Shown: positions 4,174-61,417 of the stretch, piece by piece
How the letters are laid out: every line of letters begins with the position of its first letter
Position numbering within the stretch: the stretch's first letter is position 1
Origin: Escherichia phage ECML-10
Length of the DNA stretch: 64,000 nt
Direction: 5' to 3' (one strand)
Sequence record: OL631479.1
Program-made: the position numbers and the translations under genes
Notes under the pieces: generated by a model
Seen by the model: the letters and a program-made list of their open reading frames with translations, nothing else
Databases searched by the model: none
What the model was told of the DNA's origin: nothing

Positions 4174-4992
4174 TTGAGCAAGAAAGAGTCCAACGACAAA
4201 TATTACACAAACCCTGAGTATGCAGAATATCTTGTTGGTAAAGTAAAAGATAAGTATGGAAATTGTGCATACGTTGAGCCTTCTGCTGGAAGGGGTTCTT
4301 TTTCAAAACTATTTTCAGAGATACTGTCTTACGATCTAGTACCAGATCCTGAATTTGAAGGACCAACACCGTGCATTCAGGCAAACTTCTTGGAGGTGCA
4401 TCCCAAGGCAGATGTCTTCATAGGTAACCCACCATTTGGCAAGAATTCATCTTTAGCTTGCAAATTCTTTAACCATTGTGCATCATTGCTAGAGCTTGGA
4501 GGGGCTATAGCCTTCATCTTGCCACGGACATTTGAAAAAATATTTTTTGCAAACAAACTGGACATGTCGATGCACCTTGTCTACAGTGAAAGGTGCCCTA
4601 AGAACTCGTTTCTACTTAATGGCAAACCTTATGACGTGCCGTGTGTTTTCCAAATTTGGGAGAAAAAGGCGTGCAACAGGGATCCTGTAGAGATTGGGGA
4701 GAATAAGTTATTTTCTTTTAGCACTCCAGATGACTACGACTTCTGTGTAAGACGTGTTGGGTATAATGCTGGAAAAGTATTGGGGGAGGATGACCCAAAA
4801 TCTGAAGAATCAACATATTTCATAAAATCTTTAGTTGACGGTGTTGACAGAGTGTTTGCTGAATGCTATTCTTCTTTTCAAGAAGAAGCAGGTAAGACTG
4901 CCGGAATGAAGAGTATAGGTAAGAAAGAACTACAATACATTTTGGAGACTAGGTATGATCAAAAGCATAGACTTGACCAAAGAACTTACTGA
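4174..4992 (+). CDS. DNA N6-adenine methyltransferase (putative)
   Basis: motifs DKYYTNP, EPSAGRGSF and NPPFG; start placed at in-frame TTG after the terminator, uncertain. Confidence 0.6.
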   Translation: MSKKESNDKYYTNPEYAEYLVGKVKDKYGNCAYVEPSAGRGSFSKLFSEILSYDLVPDPEFEGPTPCIQANFLEVHPKADVFIGNPPFGKNSSLACKFFNHCASLLELGGAIAFILPRTFEKIFFANKLDMSMHLVYSERCPKNSFLLNGKPYDVPCVFQIWEKKACNRDPVEIGENKLFSFSTPDDYDFCVRRVGYNAGKVLGEDDPKSEESTYFIKSLVDGVDRVFAECYSSFQEEAGKTAGMKSIGKKELQYILETRYDQKHRLDQRTY

Positions 4993-20217: not shown

Positions 20218-20751
20218 ATGACTTGTGCTAGAAAACCTGATGAACAACGTAACGCATACGATGAGTATGTGACACCGGAGTGGTGTGCAGAAGGGCTGTA
20301 TGACCTCATTCCGTTCCCAGAAGATTGGACCTATTTGGAGCCTTGCAGAAATAGCGCCTCAGGCGTGTTCTACTCCCGTATGCCGTTAGGATCTGCATGG
20401 GGAGAAATCCAAGAAGGTGTTGACTATCTGAATACAGAATACAACCATGTTGACTGTATTATCACCAACCCACCGTACAGCTTGGCTCGTGAGTTTGTAG
20501 ACAAGGCGTTGAAAGATGCTGACGTAGTTATTATGCTTTTGCGTCTTAATTTTCTGGAAAGCAAAGCCAGATTTGAATGGTGGCTTGATAATGCACCTAC
20601 CACTGTGATCACAATATCTAAGCGTCCATCATTCCAATCGAATGGCAGAACTGACGGGCAAGCATATGCATATTTTGTATGGGACAAGAAAAACCGTCTA
20701 GACTTGCCGCCATTTATGTGGTTGGCACCACCAGAGGCAGATTTGAAATGA
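20218..20751 (+). CDS. small DNA methyltransferase (N6-adenine/N4-cytosine type, NPPY)
   Basis: motif DCIITNPPYS; 177 aa. Confidence 0.55.
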   Translation: MTCARKPDEQRNAYDEYVTPEWCAEGLYDLIPFPEDWTYLEPCRNSASGVFYSRMPLGSAWGEIQEGVDYLNTEYNHVDCIITNPPYSLAREFVDKALKDADVVIMLLRLNFLESKARFEWWLDNAPTTVITISKRPSFQSNGRTDGQAYAYFVWDKKNRLDLPPFMWLAPPEADLK

Positions 20752-53613: not shown

Positions 53614-54456
53614 CATCTGTTCAGGTAGGTCGTTAAGCTACCCCGCACCATTACGTGCATAGCCATACAGTTTCCTGTATGGATCGGACTACCTCACTGC
53701 CTTGGTAACAAGGCACCTCCCATTTCGACCGCACTTGCTGGCCTACTCTACTCGCTTCTTCACACCAACCTGTGTTGGAGCTATGCTTTCGATAGTCTCT
53801 GAACGTTACTACCAGGTGTAGTTTTTAGAGATATGTTTCCACTGTCTTCTTTGCTTTATAGCCCTGACGGTCTCATAAGGATATCCAAGATCCCTAATCT
53901 CGCATTGTCGTAGACCACTCTGCAACAGTTCGCAAATCTCTATTACCTCATCTTCTGTCAGCACAGCGTTGGCATTATACTCACCAACTGGCCTTACTCT
54001 GAGGTCATTATCATAGGCGTGCTTGATATTTCCACCAGGGGTGGTCCATTCCAGGTTCCAGTATGCATTGTTGTACTTATTCCCATCCTTATGGTTCACC
54101 CATGTGAGCCTTTCAGGATCTGGGTTTGATACAAAGCATTCAGCAACCAGGTGGTGGACACCTTTTGTGCACTGCTTCCCCTCGATTAGCATGGTTACGC
54201 AAAGGTAACCTCTACCATTATCAAAACAAAACATTGTTGTATGATCACGTTTCGATAAAGGTATTGTTCCATCATCAAACACGGTATACCCGTGATAATC
54301 AGCTGTTCTAGCCATTTTAACTACACCCCTTTAGTCTTCGCTGCGGATTAGCATATTGAGCTTTTACCATACTCAGGTGTAAAAGTCAACTTAGCTTTCC
54401 CGTCAATTAAAGAGGTTATTCGACATAGATCACTCTATGAAGCCACAATGTTATTT
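53614..54456 (-). mobile_element. group I intron in the DNA polymerase gene carrying an HNH homing endonuclease ORF
   Basis: exon 1 ends ...IIYYH then K-stop, exon 2 starts DE: the insertion sits inside the HDE motif; exon 1 ends in U and intron ends in G on the coding strand; about 840 nt. Confidence 0.65.
53809..54315 (-). CDS. HNH homing endonuclease (intron-encoded)
   Basis: motifs GVHHLVAECF and WVNHKDGNKYNNAYWNLEW typical of the HNH family. Confidence 0.8.
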   Translation of the reverse strand: MARTADYHGYTVFDDGTIPLSKRDHTTMFCFDNGRGYLCVTMLIEGKQCTKGVHHLVAECFVSNPDPERLTWVNHKDGNKYNNAYWNLEWTTPGGNIKHAYDNDLRVRPVGEYNANAVLTEDEVIEICELLQSGLRQCEIRDLGYPYETVRAIKQRRQWKHISKNYTW

Positions 54457-56880
54457 ATGGTAATAGATAATACGACGAACACCTTCATCGTACCACCCAC
54501 GCTTCACCATTTGGTGGTGCATAAGTATCCCAACCAAGTCACACAGCGATGCACCACCATTCTGTTGGTATGCATTAAGTAAAGAGTGTTTAGATCGGGT
54601 CCAGATGGCATGACCATCAAAAGAGTAGATAAACTTCTTACCCGTTGCTTCCCAGAATTTCTCCAGATCCTCTTTACGGCCCTTAAGACCAGGGTTGGCA
54701 TCCCAAAGCGCATCGATTACCCTTTGTCCCAACTCTGGAGAGATGTCCAGCATATCTGCAACTTTATCTTTTTGTGCCCCGTACATAACCCCATACGTGA
54801 TAGGTTTACCGTCGTTACGGGACACCTCTCTGCCTGCTACTTTTGTATATGCCTCAGCATTGTTTTGGTGTGCGTCTCCGTTACTTACAACATCGTAATA
54901 CAGGCCGTTGTCGAACTCAAAGGCACCCCAAGCCCCGATAAGCTGCTCTAAGTTGGACCCGTCGATACCGATCTCAAAGTATCCTGGAGGAACACCCCAC
55001 AAGCTACGCATCTCTTTACCCATAACCACTTTAGGAGAGGGTTTAGGCATGTTTGCACAAATACTGTGTTTCTGTCTGGAAGTGTTTGTTAATCCAGAGC
55101 TTTTAGCAGGAAGCTTATGGTCAATCTTCAAACGTGGGTGATTAAGAAGACCAGTGTCAACCTTATCCTCCTTGATTGGATCAAGTACCGATCTGCGGTT
55201 TCGCAATGATAACCATAAGACGATATCTTTAGCCATCTCTCCGTTCAATTTTTCAAGATTCGGACACAGGTGTCCAAACGTATCTTTCAGTTGCGGAGAA
55301 GTAATAAGTGCCCTAGCTTTTCTACGTATTTTCCCGAATACTTCCTTTTTAATCCTTTCGGAGTTAGGAAAGCTTCGGAACTTGTGCACGGTTGTCTGGA
55401 ACTTAGCATCAGTTTTGTTCCAGAAGTTGATAATTAGGTCACAATACTCTGACTCCAAAAGCTCGTCCATATATGCATATACTCGTGCATCAACATCTGC
55501 ATCAGGTAAAGCTTTCTTCTTGCTGTCTTTAGTTACATCCTTAGTTCTCCACATTGTCGGAAGCCAACCAGCACTGATCAGGTATCGCTTAATGTCGTCC
55601 TGATTGCTGATTTTCATAGGTATCTTGCAGTCCGGCATTCGCTTCTGCTGTAGATCACTTATTGCCTGATCCATTAGCTCTTTAGGTAAAGGTTGTGGTG
55701 TGGAGGTGCCCTTAATATAGCCTCTCAAGAAATCAGCCATCTTATCGTGGTCTTTGCAGCCCATCTCTTCACACCATTTTATCCCCATCTTACTGACATC
55801 TCCTGTAGAGGTAAATGCTCGCTTAGGTGGGGCTTTGAACTCTAAAGCACTCATGTCCACAGGATAGCCAAGCTTATCTTTTAACCATTTCCAACCATTA
55901 TTAGAGATTGTCCCATCTTGGTTAAACGGCTTTTCAGGGAACTTGGGCCGCTGAGACATTGACAGCTCTTTTAAAGGCAGTTGTGGTTCAACACGATCAG
56001 CGATTTCTTTCATCCACGCATCGCAACGGTCACGTAAAGCAATAGCTCCATCTATGTCGAAGTATACACCCTGACGGGCCTGCAGCTCCATCAGGAAGTG
56101 CTGCAACATGCCTCGACGTAATGCGTTCTTCCAGGTGATCTTCTTGAACCCTTTCGGCTTCTCTTTGGCAGGATCGTACATAAAGTTCTGCATGTCAGAT
56201 TTGCCGTAGAATACACCTTTTGATTCCGCTACCAGCTCTTTCCAGAGCAGCTCCTGGATGATAACGTCCTCAAATACACGATCCACATACTTCCATAACG
56301 GAAGATCGCGCCAGTCATCAATTTGAACTTTCTGGTTACCAAGGGCGTAGCCCCATGCCATAAGGCCGTGAGGACCAACAGGCTGCATTTTCTTAGTAAC
56401 CGGGTTGAATACAGAGTCCGGACAACCTTTTGGTAAAGGGCGATCAGGCCACAAGATTCGGCTCATCGCCAACGTATCAAACAGGTTAACCTGGTGATCG
56501 TTGATAGTCCCCATACATTTAGGATCACGGAACATATCAAAATGAATACCAGATAATCTTTCCATCAGCATAAAGTCATAACTGTAGCAGTTATGGCAGT
56601 TCAAAGCTGTTGGTGACCAGTCAGAATTTCCTGTAAGCCAACCTTCCAACTCTGAAAAATCTGCTATGCGAACTTCAAAATCTTTATAAAGAGTTTTCTT
56701 TGCCAGAATGAAGTTCTTAGCCTTTTCTATATCCTCCTCGGAGTAGTGTGTGCGGTCATTTAGAGGAAGGAACAGCATAAAACGGTTCTTATTCAGCTCT
56801 TTAAACAGGCCGCAGTGATAATAAAGATCTAGGTCTTCTAGTAAACCAGAGGCCTCAAGGTCGAAAGACCACATACTCAT
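54457..56880 (-). CDS. family A DNA polymerase, exon 1 (3'-5' exonuclease and most of the polymerase domain)
   Basis: AAGGAGAAC RBS; N-terminal exo motif FDLEASGL; motif-B-like RNDGKPITYGVMYGAQ; reading frame stops one codon after the H of HDE. Confidence 0.8.
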
Positions 56881-56938: not shown

Positions 56939-59017
56939 TTAAAAAGGTGTTTCATCGTCTTCAAAACCGGGAACAGGGTCAGAGGACGGATCATCATACG
57001 GAAGGTCTTCTTGTGTGTCAACAGGGTTAACAGTAGGAGTTACAACCTTATCGGCCACAACCCTACCTACAGGTGTTTCTACAACTGCGTGCTCTTGATC
57101 CTCAAACATAGCTTGAGGTCTCCAAACAACCTCCCCACCTTCGCCGTCTGTGAACATCTGCATTTCTTTGTCCCAGTACCAGTTGCTGGCATCATGGAAC
57201 TTACCTGTGTGGGGATCCATAACTAAGGTATCCGCAATGCCTAACGTTTTTGCTGGGCGGTTTTTAAGACCTACCAGTCGGACACGTCCACGGGAACGAT
57301 CCACCATCTCTTCTGCCTCCACCCCAACAACTACCCAGCTAAGCTGCTCCAATCCGGCACTACCCCGAAGGTTCTCTTTTCGTACAGGGTACCAGAAAGG
57401 TAACGGATTCCCATCCTTGTCCTTTGGAGGCACAATCTCTGTGCGTTTCAGGTGAGCGATCACCAAGATAAATACATTAAACTGCTTACAGAACGCGGCT
57501 AGTTGCGTCATAGCCATGTCAAGTTCTTTGCGCTCATCCTTAACATTAAGCCCTGAAATTACCATGGACAGGTGATCCAGTACAATGTAACGGCAGTGAT
57601 ACAGACACACCATTTGTTTAAGCTTAGTGATCAACTCATCTACAGGAATAGACCCAAAATGCTTGAACACTTTGATTTTTCCAGCCTTGGCCCAAGATTG
57701 GTGAATCTCAGCATGCTCCTGATCAGTCAGGAACTGACTAGGGTCTTCAACAAACTCTTTAACATCAAACCCCAACTGGTTGGCGTATAGAGAGTTAATT
57801 GCTTCCTCAGGGTCCTCTTCAAGGTGAATCAGACACAGGCGATCATCCTCTTCATAATCATCGGCTTTAGGGCATGTCGGATCCATCAAGTATTTTGCAA
57901 TGCAGTGCTCTAGTTTCTTGGCTACAGTTGTTTTACCACCGCCAGATGGGCCTGTCAGCATCATCAAGGTGCCTTTGTGGAGTCCTTTCAGCATCTTCTG
58001 CAATTTAGGGAACTCCGCGCTGATATCTACGCCATTAGAAGTCTTCTTACGAAGAGATTCAATGGAGAAGTCTTCTAAATCAGATACAGCATCGGGCACA
58101 TATTTGACTGGGTGACGGAACATGTTGACAATATCTTCCAGCTTTTTAGCCTTCAGCATGTCACGGATATCTTTTACACCGTCAGGGTCGTTTACCTCGC
58201 TAGGGTATTCCACGTGGTAAACGTTATCAGCCATCAAAAATGCCGCGATATTATGTGTGGCTTCAACACCTTTGATAACGTGTTTTTGCTTCTCTACCTC
58301 GTTAGCTGCATCGTTGTCCATTGCAAGGACCACTGTTCCGTAGCTACGGATAAATTTCTCATTGTTTGCAAAAGTATCTACTGCGTTTGCACATCCACAG
58401 TTAATTCCAACAAAAGGCAGGCAGGGTTTTCCTGCCAGATCACCCCCGTTGATAACTGCATCGATCCCGTCCTGGACCTCTTTAGCCCACTGTTTCACCT
58501 TTGCCGGGGCTTTAGCGTTGGTGAGAATCCCTTTTACTTGTATCTGATATGCAGCCTGCCACGCTGCAATAACATCACCTTCCCCCTCACAAACGTTAAT
58601 TTGCTTACGGTTGTTGGAAGATGCACACAGCTTTTGCCCAAACATCTGGGAGTTAGCCTTTACTATGCCAACAACGGAGAAATGGCCCCTTTGCTCTTTA
58701 GGAATCGTCCAGTCACGCTTTTTGAAACCTGACAGATTTCCGTAGCGGTCGTAATATGGGAAATATGTTGCAGTGACTGTCACACCGTCTTCTTGGGACA
58801 ATGCTGATCGCACACCAAAATATTGTGCAGCCATCAGACCGATATTTTGTTGTGGGACAGGGACAATTTTAGTATTTTCTAAAACAGTCTCTACAGTTTC
58901 AACTTCTTTTTCATCACGATAGTCTCGTTTCACACTTCCCCCACTTTTATACTTAGTTGCTTTCGGGTTTGGCTCACCGAAACGGTTGTATGCAGATGCC
59001 ATAAATTTACTTCCCAT
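56939..59017 (-). CDS. bifunctional primase-helicase (T7 gp4-like)
   Basis: TOPRIM-like NVCEGEGDVIAAW in N-terminal half; Walker A MMLTGPSGGGKTT in C-terminal half; 692 aa. Confidence 0.75.
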   Translation of the reverse strand: MGSKFMASAYNRFGEPNPKATKYKSGGSVKRDYRDEKEVETVETVLENTKIVPVPQQNIGLMAAQYFGVRSALSQEDGVTVTATYFPYYDRYGNLSGFKKRDWTIPKEQRGHFSVVGIVKANSQMFGQKLCASSNNRKQINVCEGEGDVIAAWQAAYQIQVKGILTNAKAPAKVKQWAKEVQDGIDAVINGGDLAGKPCLPFVGINCGCANAVDTFANNEKFIRSYGTVVLAMDNDAANEVEKQKHVIKGVEATHNIAAFLMADNVYHVEYPSEVNDPDGVKDIRDMLKAKKLEDIVNMFRHPVKYVPDAVSDLEDFSIESLRKKTSNGVDISAEFPKLQKMLKGLHKGTLMMLTGPSGGGKTTVAKKLEHCIAKYLMDPTCPKADDYEEDDRLCLIHLEEDPEEAINSLYANQLGFDVKEFVEDPSQFLTDQEHAEIHQSWAKAGKIKVFKHFGSIPVDELITKLKQMVCLYHCRYIVLDHLSMVISGLNVKDERKELDMAMTQLAAFCKQFNVFILVIAHLKRTEIVPPKDKDGNPLPFWYPVRKENLRGSAGLEQLSWVVVGVEAEEMVDRSRGRVRLVGLKNRPAKTLGIADTLVMDPHTGKFHDASNWYWDKEMQMFTDGEGGEVVWRPQAMFEDQEHAVVETPVGRVVADKVVTPTVNPVDTQEDLPYDDPSSDPVPGFEDDETPF

Positions 59018-59801
59018 TAATTCTGCTCCTTACTGCAGGCTCGTTTGCTAAGAATACGGCTTTTGCCCAGCCACGTGGTGTGAGGCTTCGGATCATCTTC
59101 GTTCTTGCACTCTTTCCACCCAGCTTAGCGTGTTGCATGGAGTACCCACTAACCGCGTCAACTATTTGCGGGACAGGTTTTGTGTCCGGGATTATAAATC
59201 CATTACCTATCCAGCCGCAAGTTATTTTTGGATAGGCATCACGTGGAGCTATAAATTCAGGAAACCAGGGGTTTACATCATCCTCCGGTAAATACCCGCC
59301 ATAGTCAGAAGGGTGAAAACGGTAATCAGGTTTGCGCCACAGTGTGGACATAACACCCACAGGATTCTCTACATGCCACGGGCAATCGTAAATCTCTCCT
59401 AGCTCTTCCGCAACCCGAGCATCCTTTACAGCATTAATTTGGATCAAAGGATCCTTAGCCAGCTTTTTCTTAAAATGTGCAGCACCTGATACCGCTAAAT
59501 GCGTGCACGGAGGAAATGCAAGAATAAAGTCTGGAGCTGGATACATGCAAAAAGTTTCCTGAGGGAACCATGGGTCAATCCAATAATCCACATAGTGAAT
59601 GTTAGGATGATCGGTTATCACCTCTGCATAACTGCCGTGGTCAGCACCTTCTGCATTAAAGCACAGGTACAGGTACCCAGCTTTTGCCCAGTCAATAACT
59701 GCACCACCAGACCCGTCAAATAGACTCCACACAACACCTTTGTGGTAGTGTTCTTTGTAGATGAATTTCAATTTGCTGTCTCCTAATGCAAAAAGCCCCA
59801 C
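59007..59801 (-). CDS. compact DNA (cytosine-5)-methyltransferase-like protein
   Basis: motif I WSLFDGSGG, motif IV FPPCTH (catalytic Cys), motif VI ENPVG; only 264 aa. Confidence 0.5.
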   Translation of the reverse strand: MGLFALGDSKLKFIYKEHYHKGVVWSLFDGSGGAVIDWAKAGYLYLCFNAEGADHGSYAEVITDHPNIHYVDYWIDPWFPQETFCMYPAPDFILAFPPCTHLAVSGAAHFKKKLAKDPLIQINAVKDARVAEELGEIYDCPWHVENPVGVMSTLWRKPDYRFHPSDYGGYLPEDDVNPWFPEFIAPRDAYPKITCGWIGNGFIIPDTKPVPQIVDAVSGYSMQHAKLGGKSARTKMIRSLTPRGWAKAVFLANEPAVRSRINGK

Positions 59802-59822
59802 CCTTTCGGGCAGGGCCTAGTG

Positions 59823-60305
59823 TTAAACCCGGATACCTATTGTATACTCGGTGGATACCAATGTCAAATCTAAATTTAAAATTTCTTGCATCTCATAATA
59901 TGCGTCCAGGGTTAGATACATTTCCCCATCCTTTTCTACATACTTGTCCAAGTGCTTGAGGCATTTCGGATAACTATCAAGTGCAGCTTTCAGGCACTCA
60001 AACTCTGTGCTGTTGATGAATCCTTCCATCTTGGCTACCCGTTCTGGGGTAATGATAGCACTGTAGTGAGATTTAGCCTCCTGAATGCAATGGGTCCAAG
60101 CATCAACCTTCTCTTCGAAAAGTCCAAAGAACTTCTTTTTGGTAAGCTTCAGATTCTTTAAGTGCTTAAGCACTCGGTTGCCGATTACAGCCACATCACG
60201 AAACTTAAGAATCACTTTGTCGATATCTTCGCGACCTATTTTCACAAAACAGGCCTTACACATTTCAGGGGAGGAATAACCAACTTTCCACATAAAATCT
60301 GACAT
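59823..60305 (-). CDS. hypothetical protein
   Basis: 160 aa ORF. Confidence 0.45.
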   Translation of the reverse strand: MSDFMWKVGYSSPEMCKACFVKIGREDIDKVILKFRDVAVIGNRVLKHLKNLKLTKKKFFGLFEEKVDAWTHCIQEAKSHYSAIITPERVAKMEGFINSTEFECLKAALDSYPKCLKHLDKYVEKDGEMYLTLDAYYEMQEILNLDLTLVSTEYTIGIRV

Positions 60306-60317
60306 ACCACCTTCTCC

Positions 60318-60713
60318 TTATTCCTGAAAAGCAACGATATCATATGAACTTGCAGACGATCCTAGTGAAGAATGACTCCAGTCTAGGTTATCAGAGTAGT
60401 CAGCGTACTGTGCACCACTGCGTAGTTTATATTTTACCCACTTACCTGGTGCAGGGTTTTCACCACCTTCCCATACTTCCCAGTCTTCTGGCAGGCCGTC
60501 CTGAGGGTAGTCATCCACCTCACTAATAATCTTAGGGTTTGGCTCCAAGATCCATGCAGGCTCTTCCTTCCGGGTAAGTGTCCACACAGCGTAGGTATCT
60601 GAGCAGGCGCATGATAGCAAAGTATATCCACTATTCAGAACTTCTGCAAGCTCTTTTTCAGCATCTTCTAATTTGGTTAAGTGGTATTGGATAATCTTCA
60701 CACCTGTAATCAT
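60318..60713 (-). CDS. hypothetical protein
   Basis: 131 aa ORF. Confidence 0.45.
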   Translation of the reverse strand: MITGVKIIQYHLTKLEDAEKELAEVLNSGYTLLSCACSDTYAVWTLTRKEEPAWILEPNPKIISEVDDYPQDGLPEDWEVWEGGENPAPGKWVKYKLRSGAQYADYSDNLDWSHSSLGSSASSYDIVAFQE

Positions 60714-61015
60714 CAGAAACCTCCAACTTCTTCAGCAAATGCAGCTGCTGTCGTCGCTGCATCCAGATAGGACTCTAGTTCACGGGCTGCACGTTTGTAA
60801 ATTGAGTGGCGCATATCGTTTGGCAGTTGGTGGAAGTCCACCTCTTCACCGTTGTGGTAAACACGCACATCGGTAATTTGTCTAAATCCGTAATAGTCAA
60901 CATCAGAGTCACGGCACTCCGAGTCTGGCAACTGGACAACTGCTTGAGCTTCCACAGTAAACATATCGTCAAGTTCGAAATCGATTTCAAAAGTGTATGG
61001 TTTATAACGTTTCAT
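60713..61015 (-). CDS. hypothetical protein
   Basis: AAGGAAG RBS downstream of GGGGAGG hairpin; 100 aa. Confidence 0.45.
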   Translation of the reverse strand: MKRYKPYTFEIDFELDDMFTVEAQAVVQLPDSECRDSDVDYYGFRQITDVRVYHNGEEVDFHQLPNDMRHSIYKRAARELESYLDAATTAAAFAEEVGGF

Positions 61016-61075
61016 CGTTTAGTGCTTCCTTAGTTTTTGTGGGGAGGAGTGCCTCCCCTTTATACTTACATCTTA

Positions 61076-61417
61076 CTACTGGAGGTCTTCAGAGTCAAGC
61101 TCAAAAAGAATCAAACTGTGCATACCTGCAGAGAGATCAACACACCCTGCAACGATAAGGGTCTGATAGTAAGGTTCAGCACCCTCGATGTCTTCGTTAA
61201 AATCCACAACAAGATAGTCACCTTTGTTAAAGGTGTATTTGTCCGATGTAAACGCAAAACCTGCCCAGTCCCCTACTGCAGGATCTTTATCAGTCACCTT
61301 TGTTAGCAGTAGATCTTTTTCACGAGATCTTTTAGTAAAATCGTGAATCACAACATCCTTCTCTTCAGGAGTTGGATTGCCACACACGTAGTTAACGATA
61401 TTTCTCCACAAACTCAT
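61076..61417 (-). CDS. hypothetical protein
   Basis: 113 aa ORF overlapping helicase stop. Confidence 0.45.
   Translation of the reverse strand: MSLWRNIVNYVCGNPTPEEKDVVIHDFTKRSREKDLLLTKVTDKDPAVGDWAGFAFTSDKYTFNKGDYLVVDFNEDIEGAEPYYQTLIVAGCVDLSAGMHSLILFELDSEDLQ

Follow-up and report, generated by a model that had tools for sequence, protein, structure and literature searches.

The closest described relative of the gene considered here is dcm of the T1-like phage K42, which is linked to the retron Ec86. All four K42 escapers of this retron were mutated in or just upstream of the 711-bp dcm, the lesions being a deletion that removes dcm, a frameshift inside the gene and two point mutations located 9 bp ahead of the start codon (bioRxiv 10.1101/2023.08.16.553469). 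Expression of K42 dcm is toxic only alongside Ec86; the protein raises the content of 5-methylcytosine (5mC) in multicopy single-stranded DNA (msDNA), as detected by liquid chromatography-mass spectrometry, and a C82A/E128A/K175A/K176A mutant is inactive (bioRxiv 10.1101/2023.08.16.553469). In the same work, K42 Dcm was modelled on DNMT3A and its K175 was matched to the DNMT3A active site; its CCWGG specificity was an assumption based on E. coli Dcm, with msDNA mutants as the only test (bioRxiv 10.1101/2023.08.16.553469). The K42 Dcm finding has been repeated in a later paper in Nature Structural & Molecular Biology (PMC12916289). The 64,000-nucleotide stretch of Escherichia phage ECML-10 analysed here (sequence record OL631479.1; hereafter the window) carries on its minus strand, at 59007..59771, a gene that very probably encodes an active S-adenosylmethionine (AdoMet or SAM)-dependent DNA cytosine-C5 methyltransferase, belonging to a compact single-domain family of enterobacterial phages and prophages (PHROG 757, 'phage Dcm-like'). 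The gene is real but ordinary. It is not new, being already annotated in phage rV5 and dozens of its relatives, in GenBank under names such as 'DNA cytosine methyltransferase' and 'Dcm-like C5 cytosine methyltransferase', and one member of its family is characterised.

The relationship to K42 Dcm can be followed through gp76 of the Hanrivervirus phage G29-2, the 711-bp orthologue of K42 dcm. The window protein and gp76 are 54% identical over their full length (E 6e-84), and gp76 has C82, E128, K175 and K176 at the residue numbers published for K42 Dcm. Because of this identity and this match in numbering, the window protein is placed, on sequence grounds, in a family with a member demonstrated to form 5mC. 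C82, E128 and K175 of K42 Dcm correspond to C89, E135 and K182 of the window protein with a constant offset of +7, and the proteins share an Asn at motif II and the C-terminal segment RSLTPRG. Like the K42 and KarlJaspers-type (Hanrivervirus) dcm, the window gene stands alone, with a primase or helicase gene downstream. On the other hand, the window protein has 254 aa versus 236 aa in K42 Dcm, the second Lys of the latter (K176) is replaced by Ile183, and K42 Dcm is carried by a siphovirus, whereas the window protein, known here from its sequence, is carried by a myovirus. A further difference concerns the most variable stretch of the family in both sequence and length, the hypervariable loop at residues 196-216 (DTKPVPQIVDAVSGYSMQHAK; 59124..59186, minus strand). 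At least two types of this loop recur in the family, 'GYSxQH...LGG' and 'NPGW...GG'; the window protein has the former ('SGYSMQHAKLGG', 'GYSxQH' type) and the K42/G29-2 Dcm proteins the latter ('DKDNPGWAKTGG', 'NPGW' type). Since these loops differ, the target sequence of the window protein may differ from that of K42 Dcm.

The family itself is large. PHROG 757, annotated as 'DNA methyltransferase', was matched by residues 10-261 of the 264-aa open reading frame (ORF), that is, over its full length, with an E value of 1.5e-85; this was the profile search that an earlier, sequence-only reading of the window had suggested as a check on its own prediction of a C5-methyltransferase. There are 3,418 homologs in a large protein collection, nearly all of 225-260 aa, and a profile search of representatives clustered at 50% identity retrieved 2,004 clusters, mostly of 210-260 aa, of which 914 fell below 1e-10. 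The compact size is therefore a trait of a big family and not the result of truncation. Using tblastn, the gene was detected in 1,503 of 50,697 phage records, chiefly of Escherichia, Klebsiella and Salmonella phages. Members of the family are also found in a lambdoid E. coli prophage, where the gene belongs to the nin region and lies two genes downstream of a Dam-type methylase and ahead of NinG/RusA/Q, and in T1-like phages of Salmonella, where a DUF3987 primase/helicase follows it; these prophage and T1-like contexts share no conserved partner gene. Among the longer members, the search for fused domains that could hint at partners yielded a single HNH_2 fusion. A T1-phage-type copy of the gene is present in the 49-kb record of 'Streptococcus phage MBBL140'.

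The predicted structure is that of a C5-methyltransferase catalytic domain. A PDB search with the single sequence returned a chance match only. An AlphaFold2 model built from a 32-sequence alignment reached a predicted local distance difference test score of 90.3 and a predicted template modelling score of 0.89. In Foldseek searches DNMT3A/B ranked first (E 1.7e-6), and the structures matched in BFVD are the same compact phage proteins, with template modelling (TM) scores of 0.8-0.9. The order of the strands is as expected for the catalytic domain, running from beta1/motif I through beta2, beta3, beta4/PC, beta5/ENP and beta6 to beta7. In the model, beta7 spans residues 184-189 and the final helix residues 233-253; because just 43 residues (190-232), with two short helices, separate these two elements, the small domain that comprises the target-recognition domain (TRD) and motif IX is absent from the modelled protein. 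The sequence-only reading, which had proposed structure prediction as a second check, is thus borne out in its view that the protein is too short for a conventional TRD.

The three motifs named in that reading, I (WSLFDGSGG), IV (FPPCTH) and VI (ENPVG), are all present and in the order given, and their conservation was assessed in 77 family members sharing 30-54% identity with the window protein. Motif I (W15-SLFDGSG-G23; 59703..59729, minus strand, as are all features of this gene) forms the AdoMet-binding loop after beta1 and lies between a modelled strand (13-17) and helix (23-30), with the FxGxG pattern as F18-D-G20-S-G22. The first Gly of this pattern is not conserved in the wider compact family, position 20 being Y, R, F and others. 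Motif IV (F86-PPC89TH; 59499..59516) contains the catalytic cysteine and follows a modelled strand (82-85); C89 is present in 77/77 members and F86 in 71/77. Motif VI (E135-NPVG; 59355..59369) is located at the end of the modelled strand 132-136, with E135 and P137 invariant and N136 in 74/77. Also invariant are P154, Y180, W187 and P195, and nearly so are K182 (76/77), R228 and G234 (75/77 each), D178 and T184. The invariance of C89, E135 and P137 at such levels of identity argues that motifs I, IV and VI are not chance occurrences. The QxRxR of motif VIII is absent from the sequence, and a conserved D178-A-Y180-x-K182 precedes beta7 instead; K182 (59226..59228), which is Arg in the remaining member of the 77, probably corresponds to the motif VIII arginine. 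Near the C-terminus, I227-R228-S-L-T-P232, together with the start of the last helix (59043..59093), resembles the GRSWSVP of DNMT3A by pattern and may represent motif X; P232 is conserved in 73/77 members. Taken together, the fold, the invariant catalytic residues and the 54% identity to a 5mC-making phage enzyme agree with the earlier description of a C5-methyltransferase-like protein that lacks a conventional TRD.

For the window protein itself, activity, target and biological role are what we infer by analogy. Following the chemistry of the family, Cys89 would attack C6 of a flipped-out cytosine and Glu135 would protonate N3, with Lys182 standing in for the motif VIII arginine. AdoMet, the methyl donor, would be held by F18-D-G-S-G22 of motif I, by Asn39, where beta2 ends, and by Arg228-Ser-x-Thr-Pro before the last helix. 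The DNA would probably be read by loops of the catalytic domain, and the conserved insertion at 153-183 and the hypervariable loop at 196-216 may replace the TRD in this function; DNMT3A-like dimerisation might contribute as well. It can tentatively be proposed, as a possibility rather than a probability, that a minimal single-domain C5-methyltransferase reads DNA without any TRD or small domain by means of a hypervariable loop of 20-35 residues plus the conserved insertion, perhaps as a DNMT3-like dimer, and that the 'GYSxQH' loop sets a non-CCWGG motif or a relaxed or structure-dependent target (e.g., hairpin DNA). The enzyme would methylate new phage DNA, and any host DNA within reach, at a short motif. 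Methylation of RNA instead of DNA, in the manner of the tRNA cytosine-5 methyltransferase Dnmt2, is scarcely credible, as DNA enzymes score higher in the comparisons, the K42 relative methylates DNA and the gene is located among DNA replication genes.

Several observations weigh against the main reading, an active cytosine methyltransferase with a protective role. In Pfam and NCBIfam scans no model reached threshold for the protein, and PF00145 was unmatched even at E <= 1; among the 77 members only two match PF00145 (best E 0.0039). Neither QxRxR (motif VIII) nor motif IX nor the GN of motif X can be recognised. At motif II (position 39, the end of beta2) the window protein and its close clade have Asn in place of the usual acidic residue, which binds the ribose and which 73/77 members of the wider family retain as Asp; Asn is likewise present in the active K42-type enzyme. 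The CCWGG specificity is not transferred to the window protein, because it was assumed for K42 Dcm and the loop type differs. A literature search on rV5-like phages and Vequintavirus found no methylation or restriction-digest data, and a broad protective role is unlikely, because the Vequintavirinae are highly sensitive to restriction-modification (RM) systems. The missing small domain, the unrecognisable motifs VIII-IX, the want of a Pfam match and the Asn at motif II could suit a DNMT3L-like factor, methyltransferase-like but catalytically inactive, with a role in DNA binding or regulation. Such a factor is nevertheless very unlikely: a dead enzyme would not be expected to keep the catalytic Cys and Glu in 77/77 diverse members, and the 54%-identical relative is active with the same Asn.

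With regard to the benefit of the putative methylation, the sequence-only reading had suggested anti-restriction DNA modification, pointing to two further adenine-type methyltransferases on the plus strand and thus to three predicted DNA-modifying enzymes in the window. The count of three holds for methyltransferase-like proteins, both plus-strand ORFs having NPP[F/Y] motifs and PHROG matches. The first (4174..4992, plus strand; 272 aa; EPSAGRGSF...GNPPFGK) is amino-methyltransferase-like and matches PHROG 5172 (unknown function; 1.5e-129) and PHROG 799 ('DNA methyltransferase'; 3.3e-13), with Pfam Eco57I and MTS matches below the gathering score; it is a 'hypothetical protein' in phage MiataMamis despite clear motif I and motif IV signatures. 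The second (20218..20751, plus strand; 177 aa; ITNPPYS), likewise amino-methyltransferase-like, matches PHROG 799 (5.1e-67), has Pfam EcoRI_methylase and Dam matches below threshold and is annotated as 'DNA methyltransferase' in MiataMamis. The anti-restriction proposal is not supported as it was stated, since the BASEL study, which tested RM systems of types I, II and III, describes the Vequintavirinae and their relatives as 'exceptionally susceptible' to them and seemingly without effective protection (PMC8594841).

It is against this background that an active cytosine methyltransferase kept for a role other than restriction, i.e., against another defence, as a replication or packaging mark or in host gene expression, comes into consideration. 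Apart from the exceptional RM sensitivity of the Vequintavirinae (PMC8594841), such a role would fit the BASEL observation that restriction resistance in Drexlerviridae is not tied in any simple way to methyltransferase genes, and the fact that the gene is always solitary within early or replication modules of unrelated phages (lambdoid nin, T1-like primase, Vequintavirus). Against it, BASEL tested six RM systems only, mostly adenine-directed, so that site-specific protection is still compatible with those results, and no positive evidence for any of the alternative roles emerged here. A non-restriction role is thus conceivable, if rather doubtful. Protection at one specific site outside the tested RM systems is possible, and in the main reading the likely benefit of the methyltransferase would be protection from particular cytosine-sensitive restriction enzymes; a cost already known for methyltransferases of this kind is that retron Ec86/Eco1 can be set off by them. 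The oligonucleotide counts in the window were uninformative, with 121 CCWGG sites versus ~145 expected and GATC not depleted; several GC-rich 6-mers are absent from the window, where their expected numbers are small. Methyltransferase content varies within the genus, as an additional 1,326-bp adenine-methylase-like gene (gp230) is present in rV5, nimi, pangalan, CarlMeissner and CM1, where it separates the counterparts of window ORFs 60713-61015 and 61076-61417, and is missing from the window (~61015-61076).

The extent of the gene differs from that first proposed. The sequence-only reading had given an ORF of 264 aa at 59007-59801; this ORF does exist on the minus strand, opening with a GTG, and its start probably lies 10 codons too far upstream. 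The protein is taken here as 254 aa, probably starting at the TTG at 59771, 30 bases downstream of GTG 59801, with the stop codon at 59007-59009. The grounds are that this TTG has a Shine-Dalgarno sequence (AGGAGA, 59784-59779) 7 nt upstream, that the resulting 765-nt coding sequence is the one annotated in rV5 (gp226) and in the BASEL phage MaxTheCat, and that family members begin at the equivalent position. The annotation of MiataMamis has the longer 795-nt form. The ten extra codons (59772..59801, minus strand) are probably untranslated, the GTG lying inside a terminator-like hairpin (59793..59818, minus strand; an 11-bp GC-rich stem with a GAAA loop) that is followed by a T-run. This hairpin is identical in rV5, and the 71-nt leader folds with a minimum free energy of -23.5 kcal/mol. 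Upstream lies a sigma70-type promoter-like site, TTGACA-17-TACAAT (59839..59867, minus strand), which agrees with the consensus at 11/12 positions; the rV5 record lists the same site as promoter P231. The hairpin and T-run come ~20 nt after this P231-type promoter, with the Shine-Dalgarno sequence and the methyltransferase start beyond them, so that transcripts from the promoter would reach the terminator almost immediately. This strong hairpin might serve to dampen expression, to protect the 5' end of the transcript or to end transcription of the gene upstream.

ECML-10 is a Vequintavirus, i.e., an rV5-like E. coli myovirus. The 4.6 kb around the gene are 98% identical to Escherichia phage MiataMamis and 94-98% identical to rV5, LL12 and many BASEL Vequintavirus phages, and the gene is intact in 115 phage records at 95-99% protein identity. 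On the minus strand a helicase is followed by four small ORFs, the methyltransferase ORF, the primase/helicase and the DNA polymerase, an order that confirms the earlier view of a methyltransferase embedded in the replication module. The overlap with the primase-helicase start noted at that time proves to be 11 nt long (59007..59017, minus strand), joining the 3' end of the methyltransferase gene to the ATG (59017) of the primase/helicase gene (56939-59017), and rV5 gp225/gp226 have the same 11-nt overlap. Given its position between the helicase and the primase/helicase and its own sigma70-type promoter, the gene is probably expressed with the replication genes. In the neighbouring polymerase region (53809-56880, minus strand) the polymerase reading frame, of 809 aa, ends at 54451, and directly downstream lies an HNH homing-endonuclease ORF (53809-54315, 168 aa), as in phages FFH2, isim and I29. 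The 1-kb stretch with this ORF is covered to at least 80% in just 29 of 116 related records, which is consistent with an insert that many lack; the polymerase of MaxTheCat is annotated as a two-piece join. Sixteen unannotated GenBank records (MG0656xx) bear the name 'Campylobacter phage' and give C. jejuni as host; their DNA matches E. coli Vequintavirus genomes at 94-99% identity, and this host label looks doubtful.

How the compact family relates to other C5-methyltransferases bears both on its cofactor and on its minimal architecture. The classical enzymes (M.HhaI, M.HaeIII and E. coli Dcm; PF00145) have motifs I, IV and VI in the same order and presumably use the same covalent Cys mechanism; they are 327-472 aa long, whereas the phage protein has 254 aa, contains no small domain and fails PF00145. 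An hhalign comparison of the family with E. coli Dcm aligned motifs IV-VI only (E 0.13), and profile matches to DNMT3B/DNMT3A aligned motifs I-IV (E 0.38 by profile; E 4.6e-4 by hhalign to DNMT3A). Since the C-terminal half is not alignable in these comparisons, the equivalents of motifs VIII and X are ones that we infer. CmoX (PDB 8yf3) is a phage DNA cytosine C5-carboxymethyltransferase in which an Arg in place of HhaI Asn304 (motif X) binds the carboxyl group of carboxy-SAM (PMC12783734). The 97%-conserved Arg228, which fits the Asn304 position by sequence pattern only, would be in keeping with a CmoX-like enzyme that uses carboxy-SAM from the host CmoA to make 5-carboxymethylcytosine. Yet the SPPC hallmark of CmoX is FPPC in the window protein, and the K42 relative formed 5mC in E. 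coli, a host in which carboxy-SAM is present. Moreover, DNMT3A, which uses SAM, likewise has a G-R-S-W at the R228 segment, presumably its motif X equivalent. In the annotated neighbourhood of close relatives, no CmoA or CmoY/amide-ligase gene is named in the regions inspected (outside ~21.5-40 kb of the relative's record). Carboxymethylation is therefore extremely unlikely, and an AdoMet-dependent methyltransferase is the reading retained.

The top-ranked Foldseek counterparts of this methyltransferase are DNMT3A and DNMT3B. Their catalytic domains (PDB 6u8p, 4u7t and 6f57) have the SLFDG of motif I and the PC motif in register with the window protein, SLFDGIATG of DNMT3A/3B aligning with window motif I by profile; the Arg-Ser...Pro segment before the last helix is similar (validated in the DNMT3A sequence), and the TRD is much reduced in both. 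On the other hand, identity is ~15%, DNMT3 keeps motif IX, a TRD loop (in a 285-aa domain) and the ENV and RxR motifs, and the phage protein is ~30-60 residues shorter and has the conserved insertion 153-183. As the gene was already annotated, the finding adds little, and the interest that remains lies in specificity, in the minimal architecture and in database coverage, the family being missing from Pfam and NCBIfam and hence often left as 'hypothetical protein'. The loop type of each phage could help to predict its sensitivity to retron Ec86/Eco1 and to methylation-dependent restriction. The family illustrates how little protein is needed for cytosine-C5 methylation and, if DNA is indeed read without a TRD, its members would be the smallest known active DNA C5-methyltransferases, with a new mode of sequence recognition.

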